Shown here: in pieces, positions 1 to 7,113 of the stretch | Numbering within the stretch: position 1 is the stretch's first letter | Layout of the letters: every line of letters starts with the position of its first letter | NCBI RefSeq assembly: GCF_049554935.1 | Contig: NZ_CP186926.1 | Span: forward strand, 896,001 to 960,000 | DNA length: 64,000 nt | Reading direction: 5' to 3' | DNA from: Methanocaldococcus indicus | GTDB lineage: Archaea > AGJL01 > Methanococci > Methanococcales > Methanocaldococcaceae | Notes under the pieces: model-generated | Told to the model about the DNA's origin: nothing | Database searches by the model: none | The model's input: only the letters and a program-made list of their open reading frames with translations | Made by a program: the position numbers and the translations under genes

Positions 1-605
1 TTACCACACCTTAAACACATAAATGCTGCTTCTATACACCTTGTCTTTATCTTAGATGCTTGTATTATCATTCCCTCAAATACTACAAGCTTATCTATAT
101 CTTTACTGCCTATATCTTTTATATTCTTGGAATCTACTATAGGATTAACTATTTGTATATCCTTATCTGGATAATCCCCATATATTTCATAATATGCTTC
201 ATTGTAAATTTGATTAATTAGTTCTTTAACTTGAAAAGGATATTCTATTATAGCATCATTTAGTTCCATATTCATCGGGAAATTATAACAGAATTCTCTA
301 ATGTTAAAGGTGCCCCACCTAAAGTCTTCAGAAAGCTTATACTTAATGTATTTCTTAATTGCTGCACCATGATTAATTAAAAATGATTCTTGGTCAAATA
401 TACTAATTGTTTTTTCTTCTTCTTTGAGTCTAAGATATGCTTCTCCATCTTCTTCAAACATTTCCACAATGCCTCTGTCAATTAACCTTTTTCTACCCCT
501 TATTACAGATTTTTCATTATATTTTTTAGATAATATTTCTAATATATCCTTCCACTTTGTAACCCCATTCTTTATTAACTCAATAATTTCATCCCCTATT
601 GCCAT
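1..605 (-). CDS. mcm: MCM-family helicase, N-terminal part (runs off window), with extra N-terminal wHTH-like extension
   Basis: Not in ORF track. Manual translation from ATG at 605: MAIGDEIIELIKNG...IKDIGSKDIDKLVVFEGMIIQASKIKTRCIEAAFMCLRCG, matching the MCM OB-fold start and first CxxC of the Zn finger; GGGGTAGG RBS upstream. Confidence 0.8.
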   Translation of the reverse strand, partial: MAIGDEIIELIKNGVTKWKDILEILSKKYNEKSVIRGRKRLIDRGIVEMFEEDGEAYLRLKEEEKTISIFDQESFLINHGAAIKKYIKYKLSEDFRWGTFNIREFCYNFPMNMELNDAIIEYPFQVKELINQIYNEAYYEIYGDYPDKDIQIVNPIVDSKNIKDIGSKDIDKLVVFEGMIIQASKIKTRCIEAAFMCLRCG

Positions 606-741
606 GACCTACCCCTTTTTCAGATTTATTATTCTGTTCATCAAGAATTATGATTTTTGCAAGCTTTCCAACGTATTTTTTAGGAATTATCACATGTCCG
701 CTTTTTGAAAAAGGTTTTACTTTTTTAACAATTACAACCAT
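589..741 (-). CDS. DUF2080-like (AbrB-type) small protein
   Basis: KKVKPFSKSGHVIIPKKYVGK motif; GGTGA RBS before ATG at 741; overlaps the MCM start. Confidence 0.7.
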   Translation of the reverse strand: MVVIVKKVKPFSKSGHVIIPKKYVGKLAKIIILDEQNNKSEKGVGHGNRG

Positions 742-754
742 CAGCTTCACCATA

Positions 755-772
755 GTTGAAAATTTTTCCAAC
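755..772. promoter_or_regulatory. Candidate operator GTTG-N10-CAAC (left operon)
   Basis: GTTGAAAATTTTTCCAAC between a TATA-like element and the RBS of the DUF2080-MCM operon; similar site at 2492-2509. Confidence 0.45.
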
Positions 773-929
773 ATTTGAAGTCCAATCTTATTATTGGTAT
801 ATACTCCTATATATAGTTTATGTATTATTCAACAGTAGGTGTCCAAACATGGGCTGAATATTTAACTATTCTATTTAAACTAAAAATAAAAATACTCAAC
901 TATGGATAATTTCTAGAAAGTGTGAAAAA

Positions 930-1292
930 ATGACATTATTGAAGATTTTAGCAAAAAAATACGTAATAGATATCTTAGAATTACTAAATGAGCATGGAGA
1001 GTTAGGATATTCGGACATCTGGAAAACATTAGTGATAGATAAGGGGACATTAAGTAAGCTATTAAAAGAACTTGAAGATGAAGATTTAGTATTACGAAGA
1101 GAAGAAAGGACTGACAGAAGAATTCCAAGAGCTTATTATAGATTATCACCTTATGGTAAGGAAATTGTAAAAATTTGCAAACAATTAAAAGAAGCTGAAC
1201 AGAAGAAACAAGAACTTATATCGTTAGGAAATGATAATATAAACATCCAGATTGGGGAATCAACTAATACCAATATTAATATAAAAAAATAA
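930..1292 (+). CDS. HxlR/MarR-type winged-helix transcription regulator 1
   Basis: LGYSDIWKTLVIDKGTLSKLLKELEDEDLV..YYRLSPYGK wHTH pattern. Confidence 0.85.
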   Translation: MTLLKILAKKYVIDILELLNEHGELGYSDIWKTLVIDKGTLSKLLKELEDEDLVLRREERTDRRIPRAYYRLSPYGKEIVKICKQLKEAEQKKQELISLGNDNINIQIGESTNTNINIKK

Positions 1293-1606
1293 ATATTTAC
1301 ATATTATATTTACTCAGCGACCATTATAGTTAAAATGTGTTAATATTGGGATAACTGTCACTTGTGCTTCTTTTTTTAAAATAAATGTCACCTGTCTTTC
1401 TTTTTAGTGTCACTTTGATGTTACCAAGTGTCACCTCTGCCACTTTTCCGTATTTTAAAAAAATATCATCTAAAACCTTTCATTAAATTATATGCCGAAT
1501 AATAAATTTAATTTTCGTGAAAATAAGCATAAGTGACAGTTATTTTTAAAAAATAAGCTTAAATTATTGAGGTGACACTTTTTGAAATATCTCGTGACAC
1601 TACCTT
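1272..1606 (+). repeat. Long direct repeat copy 1 (335 bp), includes last codons of regulator 1
   Basis: Near-identical to 2004-2390 but lacks a 52 bp segment bounded by AAAATAAGCATAAGTG direct repeats. Confidence 0.95.
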
Positions 1607-1670
1607 GTATATATTAATAATGAATTATATAAAAAATACATTAATAATTAAACAAAAAGGAGGTCTAAAT

Positions 1671-2024
1671 ATGGACATATTAAAAATATTGACTAAAAAA
1701 TACAATAAAGCAATATTATTTTTATTGGAAAAATATGGAACTTTGCATTATAGCGCTATCAAAAAATCTTTAAATAATGTTCATGACCATTTACTTACAA
1801 AGGCTTTAGATGAACTTGTTGAAGCAGGATTAATAAAAAGAGAACTTGAGAATCCAAATATAAGGCCGTCAAGAGTTTTATATTCTTTAACTGATTTAGG
1901 AAAAATGGCATTGAATATATATTCAATTGCAAAAAAGATTGAAGACTCTAGAATCAAAGTTATTGGTAATAATAATATTATTATAAACAATGTATCGTCT
2001 TCTAATATTAATATAAAAAAATAA
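1671..2024 (+). CDS. HxlR-type winged-helix transcription regulator 2
   Basis: GGAGG RBS then ATG at 1671; LHYSAIKKSLNNVHDHLLTKALDELVEAGLI..YSLTDLGK pattern. Confidence 0.85.
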   Translation: MDILKILTKKYNKAILFLLEKYGTLHYSAIKKSLNNVHDHLLTKALDELVEAGLIKRELENPNIRPSRVLYSLTDLGKMALNIYSIAKKIEDSRIKVIGNNNIIINNVSSSNINIKK

Positions 2025-2390
2025 ATATTTACATATTATATTTACTCAGCGACCATTATAGTTAAAATGTGTTAATATTGGGATAACTGTCACTTGTGCT
2101 TCTTTTTTTAAAATAAATGTCACCTGTCTTTCTTTTTAGTGTCACTTTGATGTTACCAAGTGTCACCTCTGCCACTTTTCCGTATTTTAAAAAAATATCA
2201 TCTAAAACCTTTCATTAAATTATATGCCGAATAATAAATTTAATTTTCGTGAAAATAAGCATAAGTGGCAGAGGTGGCAGATGGTGGCACTTTGGTGGCA
2301 CTAAAAATAAGCATAAGTGGCAGTTATTTTCAAAAAATAAGCTTAAATTATTGAGGTGGCACTTTTTGAAATATCTCGTGACACTACCTT
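2004..2390 (+). repeat. Long direct repeat copy 2 (387 bp) with mirror-symmetric TGYCAC/GTGRCA box array
   Basis: Direct comparison with 1272-1606; five box pairs symmetric about position 2220. Confidence 0.95.
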
Positions 2391-2491
2391 AAAAATTTTG
2401 TTATAAAATTTTTTAATGACTGATATTAATTTTTTTAGAGAAAAATGTTTTTATAATAGTATATATCTTATACTACTATTGAATATCAACT

Positions 2492-2509
2492 GTTGAAATA
2501 ATCTTCAAC
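2492..2509. promoter_or_regulatory. Candidate operator GTTG-N10-CAAC (right operon)
   Basis: TGTTGAA-ataatc-TTCAACA palindrome downstream of a TTTTATA box and upstream of the ORF at 2541. Confidence 0.5.
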
Positions 2510-2540
2510 AAATACAAAGCAGAAAGGGTGAGCATAAGGC

Positions 2541-2702
2541 ATGAAGAAATATGAAGAAGAGGAATTAAGGGGGATGTTAAAAGAGCTTTTTGGGGATAAG
2601 TTTGAAGAAGAGTATGAGAAAGTTAGGGAAGAGTTCAGTGGGCTATTAACTGAGTATGGTGTTTTAGTTATTCTTGCAAAGAGAAATAGGATAATTTTAT
2701 AG
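2541..2702 (+). CDS. Small hypothetical protein (53 aa)
   Basis: Below ORF track cutoff; GGGTGA RBS; MKKYEEEELRGMLKELFGDKFEEEYEKVREEFSGLLTEYGVLVILAKRNRIIL. Confidence 0.7.
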   Translation: MKKYEEEELRGMLKELFGDKFEEEYEKVREEFSGLLTEYGVLVILAKRNRIIL

Positions 2703-2714
2703 GAGGTGGTAGGC

Positions 2715-2918
2715 ATGCAAGTAAGAACTGCTAATAATGGAAGAAGGACAAAGATGGGAGGAGAAACCATTGAGAAGGTTAAGAAGTTAATTAAGAGGTA
2801 TTATTTGCTAAGGGAGTTTGAAGAGATGGGCTATCCACAGGAAGAGATTAAGGAAGTTATGGATGAGCTTGTAGCAATGATTGAGGAGGTGGTAAATGAT
2901 GCAAGTGTTAGTCATTGA
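2715..2918 (+). CDS. Hypothetical protein of integrated element
   Basis: GGAGGTGG RBS before ATG 2715; operon-like spacing. Confidence 0.6.
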   Translation: MQVRTANNGRRTKMGGETIEKVKKLIKRYYLLREFEEMGYPQEEIKEVMDELVAMIEEVVNDASVSH

Positions 2919-3168
2919 ATCAGATAGTAGTTTAGAGTGCATAAATGTGGATAAGGTAGTGAAGATATACACAAATGGGAAAGTAGTAGTGATAGAGTTA
3001 GAGACTGGGGAAAGGATAAGCTTTGAAGGTGGTAAGGAGAAGCTGAAAGAAATAATTTCTGGGATTGTAACTGAGCAGCCATTGATATACCTAAAGCAAG
3101 TTAGGAGGTTCATCAAAGCCAGCAATTTAGTTGAAGGTGATGATTCAAAAAACATTATTTGTTTATAA
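2896..3168 (+). CDS. Hypothetical protein of integrated element
   Basis: GGAGGTGG RBS, overlap with previous ORF. Confidence 0.65.
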   Translation: MMQVLVIESDSSLECINVDKVVKIYTNGKVVVIELETGERISFEGGKEKLKEIISGIVTEQPLIYLKQVRRFIKASNLVEGDDSKNIICL

Positions 3169-3198
3169 CCTCCCTCCTTTATAAAATTTTTCCTTGAG

Positions 3199-3381
3199 GT
3201 GATAATGATGGAAAAGACATTAGTTATGATGGAAGTGGATAAAGAACTTTTAGATAAAGCCAAAAGAAAATGGTTAAAAAAAATAGCAAAAATACTTGAA
3301 ATAGATGAAAATAAGCTAAAATATGACGATGATGAAATCGTAAGAGCAGTGTTAATTTTGTATGTCGAAGGTAGGTTTTGA
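3199..3381 (+). CDS. Small hypothetical protein, possibly RHH-like
   Basis: GAGGTGA RBS; beta-strand then helices pattern. Confidence 0.55.
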   Translation: MIMMEKTLVMMEVDKELLDKAKRKWLKKIAKILEIDENKLKYDDDEIVRAVLILYVEGRF

Positions 3382-3416
3382 GATATAATTCCTTTTTCCT
3401 TTTCCTGGTGGGGGTT

Positions 3417-3641
3417 ATGAAGCTACTAAAATACAGCAAGGAATACAAGATAAATGCCAAGGGGCACATTAGCATAAACATAGAGAGTGTAGTTAAAGAG
3501 TCCATGAAAGTTAAAGGACTGGAACTTAGAAAGCTACTGAGAAACTACCCAATTGAAGTAATATTTGACTTAGAGGATAAAAAGATTACTATTGATTTAT
3601 CTAATTTATTTGATTATGTTGGTAAAAGGTTGGGAGTATGA
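3417..3641 (+). CDS. Hypothetical protein
   Basis: GGTGGGGG RBS before ATG 3417; stop overlaps the next start (ATGA). Confidence 0.6.
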   Translation: MKLLKYSKEYKINAKGHISINIESVVKESMKVKGLELRKLLRNYPIEVIFDLEDKKITIDLSNLFDYVGKRLGV

Positions 3642-3892
3642 AAGCAAGGAGGGCTACTTTTTATTTATGTAAGAATATTGATAGTAGAAGATTAAGGTAT
3701 ATTTTGCATAAATTAGAAAACTTGGAGACAATAAATCCAGAAATATTAAAAAAGGTTATTGAAAGTAAGAAATGCTACAGAAGGACAATAATTCTAACTG
3801 ATGAAGAGCTAAAAATATATGAAAAATATGGCAAGGCCATCAATTTATATCTAAATTATCTTTTGGTGAATGAAGATGGAGAAAGGACTTAA
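3638..3892 (+). CDS. MJ0366-like (DUF2540) ribbon-helix-helix protein
   Basis: RATFYLCKNIDSRRLRYILHKLEN closely matches MJ0366 as I recall it; same position upstream of an integrase. Confidence 0.8.
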   Translation: MKARRATFYLCKNIDSRRLRYILHKLENLETINPEILKKVIESKKCYRRTIILTDEELKIYEKYGKAINLYLNYLLVNEDGERT

Positions 3893-4856
3893 TATCAAAA
3901 ATCTTTTATTAATAAAGCCAAAGAGAGAAAAAGCTGATGAAACACCAGAGATAAAAGAATGGTTGGATAAATTTAAAATTGAGAGAGAGTTTGATGGAAT
4001 AAAAAAAGAAACCATAAGGTCTGATTTAGATAGATTAAGGGTATTTTTAGATTTTGTATATAATAGGTTAAATAAAAAACCTGATGAATTAGAGACACAT
4101 GATTTTATAAAATTTTTCAGTTATTTAGAGAAAGAAAGAAGAGTTAGCAGGAGCACACAAAGGAAATATTATTTGTTATTAAAGGTTTTTTACAAAATTA
4201 TGAGGTTACAACATGTCATTAAAGGATTTATTGAAGAAAGTAAAGAGAGAAAAAGATTTTCAAAAATTGAAGTTAAGCATTATGACCCTGTAGATGATGA
4301 AATAGTTAATCAGATACTAAATAAGATATTAAAGTCAAATAGCAGGGTAAATATCAGAAATGCACTATTAATTAAATTTACTTATGAGACAGGATGTAGG
4401 ATATCTGAAGTTTTAAATTTGAAATATAAAGATTGTGATTTTAATACAGGGATGTTTAGAATAACTAACACTAAAACACATGAAGAGAGGGTAGTTGTAT
4501 GCTCTGAAGAAACGTTAGAAGCCTTGAGATGGTATGTTAGATATAATCCAAGACAAGGACCAGATGATTACATCTTTCAAAAACAAGATGGGAGTAAATT
4601 GAGCAGAAATACAATTTTACATGTATTTAATAAAGTAGTTAAAGAACTAAAAGAAGAGGGTAAAATTCCTATAAATAAAAGGATAACATTACACAGTCTA
4701 AGACATGGGAGAGCTGTTGATTTATTAGAAAAAGGATTACCACTTGATATAGTAAAAGAATTACTTGGACATAAAAGCTTAGACACAACTTTATTTTACT
4801 CACACTCAAAGGAAAGAACTAAGAAATTATTAAAAACTATAAAAAAGATTTTATAG
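3870..4856 (+). CDS. Tyrosine recombinase/integrase (MJ0367-like)
   Basis: ETGCRISE (R), HSLRH, LLGH and TTLFY (Tyr) catalytic motifs. Confidence 0.95.
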   Translation: MKMEKGLNIKNLLLIKPKREKADETPEIKEWLDKFKIEREFDGIKKETIRSDLDRLRVFLDFVYNRLNKKPDELETHDFIKFFSYLEKERRVSRSTQRKYYLLLKVFYKIMRLQHVIKGFIEESKERKRFSKIEVKHYDPVDDEIVNQILNKILKSNSRVNIRNALLIKFTYETGCRISEVLNLKYKDCDFNTGMFRITNTKTHEERVVVCSEETLEALRWYVRYNPRQGPDDYIFQKQDGSKLSRNTILHVFNKVVKELKEEGKIPINKRITLHSLRHGRAVDLLEKGLPLDIVKELLGHKSLDTTLFYSHSKERTKKLLKTIKKIL

Positions 4857-4991
4857 CTGCTACTTTTGTAGTCCAGTTAGGTTATTATAAACAAAGGACC
4901 TTAAAATTAATCAGGACTTAGTCCTGTGTAAAAAGTAGATATGAATATCAATTTTTTAGCTTTTTTTGGAAAATAATTTTACAAAAAAGTA

Positions 4992-5079
4992 TGGCGCGGG
5001 GGCCGGGATTTGAACCCGGGTAGGGCGGAGCCCAACGGGATTAGCAGTCCCGCGCCGTACCAGGCTGGGCCACCCCCGC
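4992..5079 (-). tRNA. tRNA-Ser(GCT) with encoded CCA
   Basis: GC-rich cloverleaf GCGGGGG..GGGACT-GCT-AATCCCG..long variable arm..GGTTCAAATCC..CCCCCGCGCCA. Confidence 0.97.
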
Positions 5080-6282: not shown

Positions 6283-7113
6283 TCAATTTTTAATTTTTAT
6301 AGCTGTTTTAGTTCCATCTTTTAGAGATTTTAGGAAATTTTCTAATTCTTCTAAGAATTTTTCTTTATTTTCAATTTTATAATTATTTGTATATTTTTCA
6401 ACTATCTTTACAATAGCACTACCTACAATAGCTCCATCAGCTATTTTACAAATCTCTTCTACATGCTCTTTTTTGGATATACCAAAACCTACACATATTG
6501 GAAGGGATGTTTTTTCTTTAACTTTCTTTATATAGTTTTTAGTTTCTTCTTTTACTTTGTCTCTTTCCCCAGTTATTCCTGTTACAGAAACAGCATATAT
6601 AAATCCAGATGCTTTTTTTAGTATTTTATTTAATCTTTCTTCTGTTGTTGTTGGTGCTACTAAAAATATTAAGTCAATACCATACTTTTTGCATATATTA
6701 TAGAGAGATTCACTCTCTTCAACTGGTAAATCTGGAACTATTAAGCCAGATATTCCTGATTCTTTTGCTTTCTTTACAAAATTTTCCTCTCCCATCTTAA
6801 ATATTATATTATAATACACTAAAAATACTAATGGTTTATTAGGATATTTTTCATTTAGATATTTTGCTAACTCAAAAGCTTTTAATGGAGTCATCCCAGA
6901 TTTTAGAGCTCTATAATCAGCTTTTTGAATAGTTAATCCATCTGCAACTGGGTCAGAGAAAGGTATTCCTATTTCTATTATATCCCCATACTTACATAGC
7001 ATTTCAAAAGCTTCCTTAGAATCTTCAAAGTTTGGGTCTCCTGCTACTAAAAAAGGAATAAATGCTTTTTCCTCTTTTTCATTTAATTCTTTAAATTTCT
7101 CTTCAATTTTCAT
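6283..7113 (-). CDS. trpA: Tryptophan synthase alpha chain
   Basis: EIGIPFSDPVADG and GFGIS motifs. Confidence 0.97.
   Translation of the reverse strand: MKIEEKFKELNEKEEKAFIPFLVAGDPNFEDSKEAFEMLCKYGDIIEIGIPFSDPVADGLTIQKADYRALKSGMTPLKAFELAKYLNEKYPNKPLVFLVYYNIIFKMGEENFVKKAKESGISGLIVPDLPVEESESLYNICKKYGIDLIFLVAPTTTEERLNKILKKASGFIYAVSVTGITGERDKVKEETKNYIKKVKEKTSLPICVGFGISKKEHVEEICKIADGAIVGSAIVKIVEKYTNNYKIENKEKFLEELENFLKSLKDGTKTAIKIKN

Follow-up and report, generated by a model that had tools for sequence, protein, structure and literature searches.

Two diverged winged-helix regulators and a duplicated palindrome in a candidate control region of an integrated Methanocaldococcus element

How do two strongly diverged regulator genes come to stand in tandem, each running into a nearly identical palindromic repeat? 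This arrangement fills positions 930-2390 of a 64,000-nt stretch of the Methanocaldococcus indicus genome (the window; coordinates are window positions, position 1 being genome position 896,001 of NZ_CP186926.1). An earlier note on this DNA had described the order as regulator 1 - repeat - regulator 2 - repeat, and its coordinates hold in the sequence, the list of open reading frames (ORFs), the repeat finder and the pairwise alignment (Table 1). The best explanation overall, with a probability of roughly 0.5, is that the locus forms the control region of a 26.8-kb element that is integrated at a tRNA-Ser gene and encodes an MCM helicase, and that it arose through the steps proposed below, in which two relatives of the element recombined.

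The two genes encode winged-helix regulators from two clades of one family. BLASTP aligns the proteins with 36 of 94 residues identical (38%, E 4e-12), and their helix-3 regions are dissimilar, in line with the strong divergence, including the recognition helix, that the note had reported. Both had also been called HxlR proteins. Each does exceed the gathering cut-off of the Pfam HxlR model (PF01638; 20.8 bits, 91 positions), regulator 1 with 29.1 bits over positions 2-84 and regulator 2 with 40.7 bits over positions 1-73, but the MarR model gives regulator 1 a higher score (42.4 bits); the label stands as to the cut-off and not as the best-scoring family of regulator 1. The PDB relatives of regulator 1 are MarR/SarZ/OhrR and HxlR proteins, and those of regulator 2 are of the HxlR/QsrR/YdzF type. 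The start of regulator 2 was set at the ATG behind GGAGG; the mechanical ORF opens at GTG 1572. A tree of 24 family members, the phylogeny that the note had called for, places regulator 2 in a clade of 8 (Shimodaira-Hasegawa-like approximate likelihood ratio test, SH-aLRT, 99) and regulator 1 outside it, as sister to the regulator of locus L023 (support 92).

Both regulators end in NINIKK-stop, the repeat opening 21 nt inside each gene. Because a tail ending in N-[IV]-x-[IF]-K-K is common in the alignment of the regulator family, this shared end is partly ancestral; yet the last 21 nt are identical as DNA. In many relatives a short Asn/Ile-rich tail follows the winged helix (for example GDNNIIANNIQNSxISFKK), with the look of a few hexapeptide-type repeats and a KK end.

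The two repeat copies lie in direct orientation with a spacing of 732 nt (repeat finder). Their identity, given before as about 260 bp, is exact over 264 nt (1272-1535 = 2004-2267) and breaks off sharply at 1271/2003. If gene and flank had simply been duplicated in tandem and the genes had then diverged, the direct repeat and its spacing would be accounted for. Such a course is nevertheless hardly credible, as the note had also argued, since genes of such low identity and different clades adjoin flanks that are 100% identical over 264 nt and end abruptly.

Farther to the right the copies differ. As reported earlier, copy 1 is short by 52 bp (four boxes): copy 2 has 52 additional nt at 2252-2303 (equally 2272-2323), placed between 20-nt direct repeats AAAATAAGCATAAGTGGCAG and carrying four GTGGCA boxes. 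Three substitutions separate the copies (copy 1/copy 2: 1536 A/G, 1547 T/C, 1575 A/G), and two of them change GTGACA to GTGGCA, the difference already remarked on. All three fall within the last 71 of 335 positions (P = 0.009), and at least two of the three hit the same box position (P = 0.0024). This clustering implies either that the left 264 nt were duplicated or homogenized later than the right arms, or that the right arms are under different constraint.

Each repeat is a long imperfect palindrome in which oriented hexamer boxes surround an AT-rich centre. Twenty of the 28 matches to GTGRCA in the window fall within 1356-2383, and their orientation is strict, with all left-arm boxes on the minus strand and all right-arm boxes on the plus strand. 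In copy 2 the palindrome is fuller, with 29 of 40 positions of the inner right arm mirrored in the left arm; as single-stranded DNA this copy forms a long imperfect palindrome that folds far better than shuffled sequences (z = -6.4). DNA relatives of the repeat were absent from 16 other genomes of the genus (best match 36 nt or less, E 2e-4), and the exact 27-nt left-arm pattern had no match among metagenome contigs.

Could the tandem be an artefact, with two related elements or mixed-culture alleles collapsed during assembly? The identical 264 nt exceed short reads, the k-mer graph leaves the order of the pieces open, and related alleles do occur in nature. Sequencing run X1 (Logan contigs) holds 96% of sampled words and is probably the source run, hence not independent. 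Its unitig depths are nevertheless equal on the unique parts (34 for 1-1301, 34.9 for 1577-2033, 33.6 for 2361-3000; also 36.1 for 1506-1605 and 32.6 for 2238-2389) and about double, 65.9, on the shared unitig 1272-1535, without variant letters. Unitig 1577-2033 links the right arm specific to copy 1 with regulator 2 and leads on into the repeat, and the genome assembles into two contigs. The X1 depths fit a tandem; the graph equally allows a single-copy allele plus an equimolar 732-nt circle. With contigs built at k = 31, a joint inside the 264 identical nt is not visible; contig joints with a side of 30 letters or fewer (1304>2003, 2025>2363, 2415>2497, 1606>2497) were set aside, as were window parts without contig cover in runs X1-X4.

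The same layout occurs a second time. In genome G017, from another family of the order, locus L045 shows gene-repeat-gene-repeat near an MCM gene (38.7% identical). Its regulators (3068-3370 and 4037-4339) are 46% identical to each other, and its repeats (3352-3679 and 4348-4675; 329 nt) are 94.8% identical and palindromic, with boxes of the GTATATAC type. Because an unrelated genome thus has the layout independently, an assembly artefact is very improbable. A weaker third copy of the L045 repeat lies at 6819-6957.

Single-regulator alleles were found in metagenome runs X2 and X3, which belong to another study. Record 16 of X3 (3068 nt, depth 22) joins window 1-605 (1 mismatch), 284 other letters and 1651-2145 (14 mismatches), and reads as an allele with regulator 2 as the only regulator, at the usual position next to MCM. 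It goes on with 1394-1539 on the opposite strand, so that the palindrome centre and inner boxes are flipped; the cause may be either a genuine inversion between the arms or faulty contig building at an inverted repeat. Record 19 (509 nt, depth 76; the piece is also present in X2 at depth 8.3) joins 1044-1325 (15 mismatches), 96 other letters and 2396-2526, and by its letters is a relative of regulator 1 with almost no array and without regulator 2. Run X4 yielded two short identical pieces only, at depth 2. The X2/X3 variant departs from both window copies at 2060, 2061, 2081, 2090 and 2109, where the copies agree with each other, and the duplication or homogenization is therefore younger than the split from that variant.

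Relatives of the regulators were sought in a collection of 40 genomes of one order. Relatives of regulator 2 occur in 21 of these, including the present genome (G000), and gene context was compared in ten loci of 16 kb each. In six of the ten the regulator is transcribed away from a DUF2080 gene, and in three of the ten MCM is adjacent; weaker DUF2080-like ORFs hold the same position in L035, L040 and L045. The usual place of the family in related elements is that of one gene, divergent from a DUF2080-MCM operon. Most loci have a single regulator, and others have two or three: L035 has three in tandem, and L040 has one plus a truncated one. The note had proposed that the number and type of regulators at the site would vary among related elements, and both these counts and the metagenome alleles agree. 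Among five multi-regulator loci chosen by eye (one in G000, two in G017, one each in G013 and G039), two have near-identical repeated flanks. A six-sequence alignment led to 3 loci. Single-protein queries of viral contigs returned no relative of either regulator. On plasmids, regulator 1 had no match; the 51 records that matched regulator 2 were only generic HxlR genes of bacteria and haloarchaea, and in none did coverage reach 80%.

In many of these loci an inverted hexamer array around a centre lies 3' of the regulator, and its box sequence is element-specific: ATTCAC in L032, L033, L034, L023, L043 and L044, GTTGCA in L035 and L040, GTATGA in L036, ATGAAC in L040 and ATGCAAAC in L042. When exact hexamers were scored with a threshold of three or more, 5 of 21 regulator genes passed, and three more arrays are plain by eye. 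As controls, 1000 random stretches of 600 nt from the window itself were scored, of which 3 passed; of 1000 stretches from related loci, the arrays themselves included, 21 passed.

The earlier note had taken the repeat to be each regulator's own identical site, a view that the comparisons contradict. Array and DNA-binding part vary independently, both in the window and in three pairs of loci. L023 has a DNA-binding part of the regulator 1 type and L014 a regulator of the other clade; from about codon 82 onward, the tails and ATTCAC arrays of the two share 83.6% DNA identity. L042 and L032 have the DUF2080 gene, the intergenic region and the regulator in common (83.7% over 729 nt), yet their arrays differ, ATGCAAAC against ATTCAC. 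Finally, L043 and L034 are almost identical across kilobases save for one sharp-edged patch (L043:2836-3160, alignment columns 277-600). It takes in the intergenic region between DUF2080 and the regulator, together with the first ~58 regulator codons, which encode helices 1-3. This hypervariable patch looks like diversifying exchange of a specificity determinant. Mosaic joints within the regulator gene recur among relatives.

In these alignments the co-exchanged unit is the upstream intergenic region together with helices 1-3, independent of the downstream array. Since array type does not follow the DNA-reading part of the regulator in these comparisons, the array is probably not its own operator, and a site of the element backbone is more likely. 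Conversely, the joint exchange of the upstream region and helices 1-3 is what an immunity region would show and would place the operator upstream. By this analogy the regulators might confer immunity, as the note had supposed. The candidate operator and promoter region of regulator 1, upstream of its gene, comes with an inverted repeat CCATAGTTGA/TCAACTATGG (750-759 and 896-905) and a palindrome TTTCTAGAAA (910-919), both candidate dyads for binding of an HxlR-type dimer. Nine-mers from the upstream regions of both regulators showed no meaningful recurrence elsewhere in the element. DUF2080 was considered as reader of the arrays and rejected, since L042 and L032 have different arrays and yet similar DNA-binding parts of this protein; a C-terminal extension of it is confined to these two loci.

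These comparisons also bear on a cassette model, in which each regulator would travel with its own operator array and be gained or lost through the repeats as a 0.73-kb circle, providing stackable or switchable immunity. The twofold independent occurrence of gene-repeat-gene-repeat (window and L045) fits such a model, as do the order regulator - array - truncated regulator - other array in L040, the range of one to three regulators at the site, the existence of single-regulator alleles and a tyrosine integrase gene 1.5 kb off. However, array type fails to track the DNA-binding part, and in L035 the three stacked regulators are not separated by arrays. Nor do the single-regulator alleles resemble the product of a repeat-by-repeat deletion: X3 record 16 lacks regulator 1 and copy 1 and has the DUF2080/intergenic stretch swapped for the 284 other letters, and record 19 lacks nearly all of the array. 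The X1 depth over regulator 2 equals that of its flanks, and a circle follows formally from any direct repeat. The cassette model is improbable.

Capture of a second regulator by recombination, as the note had suggested, is supported by the different clades, the single-regulator alleles and the recurrent mosaic joints. In the explanation preferred here, two relatives with different regulators and the same backbone would have met in one cell and recombined. Sharing of a cell would be expected only for relatives that differ in regulator specificity, and these would share the backbone, the palindrome included. One route is a cointegrate or tandem integration followed by deletion; the other is homologous insertion of a piece carrying regulator 2 plus palindrome. 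Either would yield regulator 1 - palindrome - regulator 2 - palindrome, and the event or a later gene conversion would be recent, because 264 nt are still identical. On either route the joint left by deletion or insertion would be at 1606, where copy 1 ends on the right. Homology to the regulator 2 upstream regions of relatives begins only at ~1648-1651, so regulator 2 has lost its own divergent upstream region and now sits behind the distal end of copy 1. The resulting element would carry the cis-site twice and have two repressor specificities. With operators upstream of their genes, the regulators and the small DUF2080 protein would form a switch resembling cI/cro over the replication operon.

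The palindrome, as a cis-site of the backbone, would most likely serve MCM loading through an added N-terminal winged-helix domain of the helicase; alternatively or additionally, it would control the DUF2540-integrase operon. Within the preferred explanation, a function as origin or loading site is placed slightly ahead of one as transcription-control array. Among the origin-like features are oriented boxes around an AT-rich centre, 670 nt from the sole replication gene; the start of regulator 1 lies 325 nt from the MCM start. The added MCM domain is predicted for residues 1-62 (window 420-605). An AlphaFold model of residues 1-160 has a mean confidence score (pLDDT) of 87.4 and the order H-H-H-strand-strand across residues 3-60; the added domain itself scores ~89-96 and is conserved in the MCMs of L032-L034 and L043. 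In elements with ATTCAC boxes helix 3 is kept as SVSMAK(N/S)RL though the N-terminal 170 residues are only 59-74% identical, and in the present element it reads SVIRGRKRL. This may offer an indirect lead to box recognition. The cumulative GC-skew minimum of the element lies at ~440-2200.

A doubtful alternative grants the arrays no replication role. They would be operators or enhancers of the genes to their right (copy 1 for regulator 2, copy 2 for DUF2540-integrase), read by some protein of the element. In most loci the array does end just ahead of a conserved promoter-like motif and the next operon, the motif being AATAAGGAAAACTTGAAT with ATTCAC boxes, AAAAATAAAGCYAATT..TTGAG in L035, L036 and L040, and AAAAATAAGCTTAAATTATTGAG in the window (1548-1570 and 2332-2354). 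The next operon ends in DUF2540-integrase in L035 and L040, arrays also occur in loci without MCM, and the available part of the report on SNJ2 Orf4 (PMC10123103) supplies a precedent. However, in L032-L034 the MCM gene stands between the array and the integrase. Furthermore, inverted arrays that flank an AT-rich centre next to the only replication gene are what an origin classically looks like; Badel et al. (2019; PMC6972569), in the accessible portion of their text, predicted element origins from repeats together with GC skew and found them beside the Rep gene in 12 of 15.

Several points weigh against the preferred explanation. Elements that share a box type and an MCM helix 3 are also related to one another, which confounds this link. 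At 20% GC, compared with 28% for the window, the palindrome centre is no striking unwinding element, and a rival origin candidate 3 kb to the left in the same element is better-looking, with GTTGCA arrays and a centre of 6.6% GC. L035, L036 and L040 have arrays with no MCM within 8 kb, and 12 of the 21 regulator genes have no clear downstream array. The GC-skew minimum coincides with the switch in gene orientation and is hence not independent. The binding, transcription and replication roles of all parts are deduced from sequence, the X2 and X3 alleles are known as mapped contig pieces, and either recombination route may apply.

The borders of the element are given by a 65-nt direct repeat, 96.9% identical, at genome positions 874243-874307 and 900983-901047. 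The genome comprises 1.41 Mb and a second contig of 22 kb, with 28% GC. By tblastn the element matches the 22-kb contig in MCM (43%) and a weak integrase match only, with no core gene otherwise. The DUF2540-integrase pair is conserved in L035, L036, L037, L040 and L041.

Table 1. Positions of the locus and of neighbouring parts of the element in the window
Feature	Position	Strand	Basis
Regulator 1, winged-helix protein, 120 aa	930-1292	+	Pfam MarR 6.7e-11, HxlR 8.8e-7
Repeat copy 1, 335 nt	1272-1606		repeat finder, pairwise alignment
Unique spacer preceding regulator 2, GGAGG at 1655-1659	1607-1670		homology to relatives' upstream regions only from ~1648-1651
Regulator 2, winged-helix protein, 117 aa	1671-2024	+	Pfam HxlR 2.2e-10
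Repeat copy 2, 387 nt	2004-2390		repeat finder, pairwise alignment
Copy 1 left arm, 5 GTGRCA boxes and one GTAACA	1356-1443	-	box scan
Copy 1 centre, 74 nt, 20% GC	1446-1519		composition count
Copy 1 right arm, 3 GTGACA boxes	1533-1599	+	box scan
Copy 2 left arm, same as copy 1; same centre	2088-2175 (arm)	-	box scan
Copy 2 right arm, 6 GTGGCA and 1 GTGACA	2265-2383	+	box scan
Asn/Ile-rich tail, regulators 1 / 2	1215-1292 / 1965-2024		family alignment columns 117-167
Divergent intergenic region, candidate operator/promoter of regulator 1	775-929		co-exchange with helices 1-3 in L043 vs L034
DUF2080 gene, 61 aa, first of leftward DUF2080-MCM operon	589-774	-	Pfam DUF2080 1.7e-10
MCM helicase gene, 5' part, 730 aa, extends left beyond window	1-605	-	Pfam MCM 2.4e-74, MCM_OB, MCM_lid
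DUF2540 gene, last of small-ORF rightward operon (2541-3892)	3638-3892	+	Pfam DUF2540 3.1e-26
Tyrosine integrase, 328 aa, unsplit by integration	3870-4856	+	Pfam Phage_integrase 6.6e-38
Right attachment site	4983-5047	-	65-nt direct repeat; left copy at window coordinate -21757
tRNA-Ser(gct), overlaps right attachment site	4992-5079	-	ARAGORN

How does this locus compare with known systems? Lambdoid phages have divergent cI and cro genes with operators between them, and the whole is swapped as a module among otherwise similar phages. The present locus likewise has divergent genes for small DNA-binding proteins beside replication genes, and L043 and L034 likewise differ by a sharp hypervariable patch of intergenic region and DNA-reading part between near-identical flanks. 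Unlike in lambdoids, the proteins are unrelated to cI and cro (HxlR/MarR-type winged helix, AbrB-like DUF2080), the host is an archaeon and two regulators are stacked; the present system is known from its sequence alone.

Iteron plasmids such as P1 (incC-repA-incA) and F (incB-repE-incC) have direct-repeat arrays bound by the Rep protein whose gene they flank. Here, too, a winged-helix gene lies between two arrays of the same box beside replication functions. Unlike in those plasmids the arrays are inverted, and the comparisons among loci speak against their being read by the protein whose gene they flank.

Integron cassettes consist of an ORF and an imperfect-palindrome attC of roughly 60-140 nt and are moved by a tyrosine recombinase. 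The order of gene then imperfect palindrome, the tandem arrangement and a nearby tyrosine recombinase gene are shared with the locus. In contrast, its palindromes are 335-387 nt long, box-structured and near-identical, attI and Pc are absent and no circle was seen. The integrase also sets the element apart from integrons: it has generic Phage_integrase plus SAM-like domains and targets a tRNA gene.

SNJ2 Orf4 is described in the available part of PMC10123103 as a winged-helix repressor of a haloarchaeal provirus that acts at a palindrome in the integrase promoter and keeps the provirus quiescent. The likeness is one of role, that of a small winged-helix protein of an integrated archaeal element. 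As far as that text extends, SNJ2 has a three-gene module centred on Orc1/Cdc6, whereas here the partners are DUF2080 and MCM and the palindrome does not track regulator type.

Among the closest known systems are the MCM elements of Methanococcales in the pT26-2 family and among its relatives (PMC6972569). In the accessible portion of that text they have the same middle size, tRNA-Ser site, unsplit integrase and MCM, and, as here, a repeat-rich non-coding region beside the replication gene is the putative origin. The Methanococcales subgroup in its Table 3 is characterized by an unsplit integrase, a tRNA target and often MCM, all of which the present element has. The core of the pT26-2 family is seven genes (t26-5p, 6p, 7p, 11p, 13p, 14p and 15p), and the element is likened to it by general traits only. 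The terms 'winged helix', 'helix-turn-helix' and 'transcriptional regulator' do not occur in the portion of PMC6972569 at hand; the regulator locus, its mosaicism and the duplicated palindrome are therefore not described in that portion.

Mosaicism of immunity regions and arrays flanking a plasmid gene are already known; what is new is their form in little-studied archaeal elements. How integrated plasmids and proviruses of methanogens stay quiescent, exclude relatives and start replication is essentially unknown, and the Methanococcales are, to our knowledge, the archaea with the least understood loader of the MCM helicase. The locus offers a compact set of parts: two divergent regulators, an AbrB-like partner, a winged-helix MCM and a palindrome in two copies. 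The single-regulator alleles and the second independent instance are ready comparisons. Should the palindrome prove to be where MCM is loaded, genetic tools for hyperthermophilic methanogens would gain a simple origin; should the regulator patch determine immunity, archaea would have a counterpart to the exchange of immunity regions among phages.

A broader proposal, speculative and rather unlikely as a whole, can be formulated on this basis. Heteroimmune archaeal MCM elements would exchange and stack repressor specificities, and the patch of intergenic operator and helices 1-3 would be the fast-evolving immunity determinant. A regulator and a copy of the helicase-loading palindrome would move between co-resident relatives by homologous recombination at the palindrome, giving multi-immunity and two loading sites. 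Such a layout would have arisen at least two times (G000 and G017), and the palindrome may also be an invertible switch.

A structured-RNA reading of the palindrome was tried and rejected. In Rfam a tRNA alone scored above threshold, and weak matches to miRNA precursors reflect the hairpin only. Copy 2 has 6 G-T wobbles on the top strand and 1 on the bottom strand; over 13 arrays there was no consistent strand preference of RNA folding energy (differences -16 to +14 kcal/mol), and RNAalifold gave an unfavourable covariation term (+6.3) for five ATTCAC arrays.

The DUF2080 proteins of L032 (8556-8852) and L042 (29-307) carry a C-terminal extension of ~45 residues with the look of a second small winged helix. 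It has diverged between the two and is without counterpart in the other loci. A literature search on DUF2080 retrieved only unrelated work.

Elsewhere in the element there are radical-SAM, DUF488, acylphosphatase and nSTAND/AAA genes. A second, shorter integrase-like ORF near its left end (L001:4671-5444, 257 aa, Phage_integrase 1e-11) might be the trace of an earlier tandem or cointegrate. The rival origin candidate is an 850-nt non-coding stretch (L002:6917-7770, window -3083 to -2230) between a 116-aa ORF and a 159-aa ORF behind MCM. Here, GTTGCA/TGCAAC inverted arrays surround a centre of 91 nt, and they are accompanied by a CGCTAT motif (the reverse of ATAGCGAAAAC, common to L035, L036 and L040) and by separate TTTCTACA/TGTAGAAA arrays. 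This stretch may be the real origin of the element.

The motif AAAAATAAAAACTCAAC (reverse GTTGAGTTTTTATTTTT) stands ahead of several operons of the element (L002:6908-6950, L002:8352-8395 and window 880-900), and the arrays have a degenerate version of it at their distal end; it is probably a promoter element. On the 22-kb contig, fourteen alternating GGATAA/TTATCC boxes (C2:1864-2119) lie 0.7 kb from the MCM gene of that contig (2848-4842), and this array is the likely origin of the 22-kb replicon.

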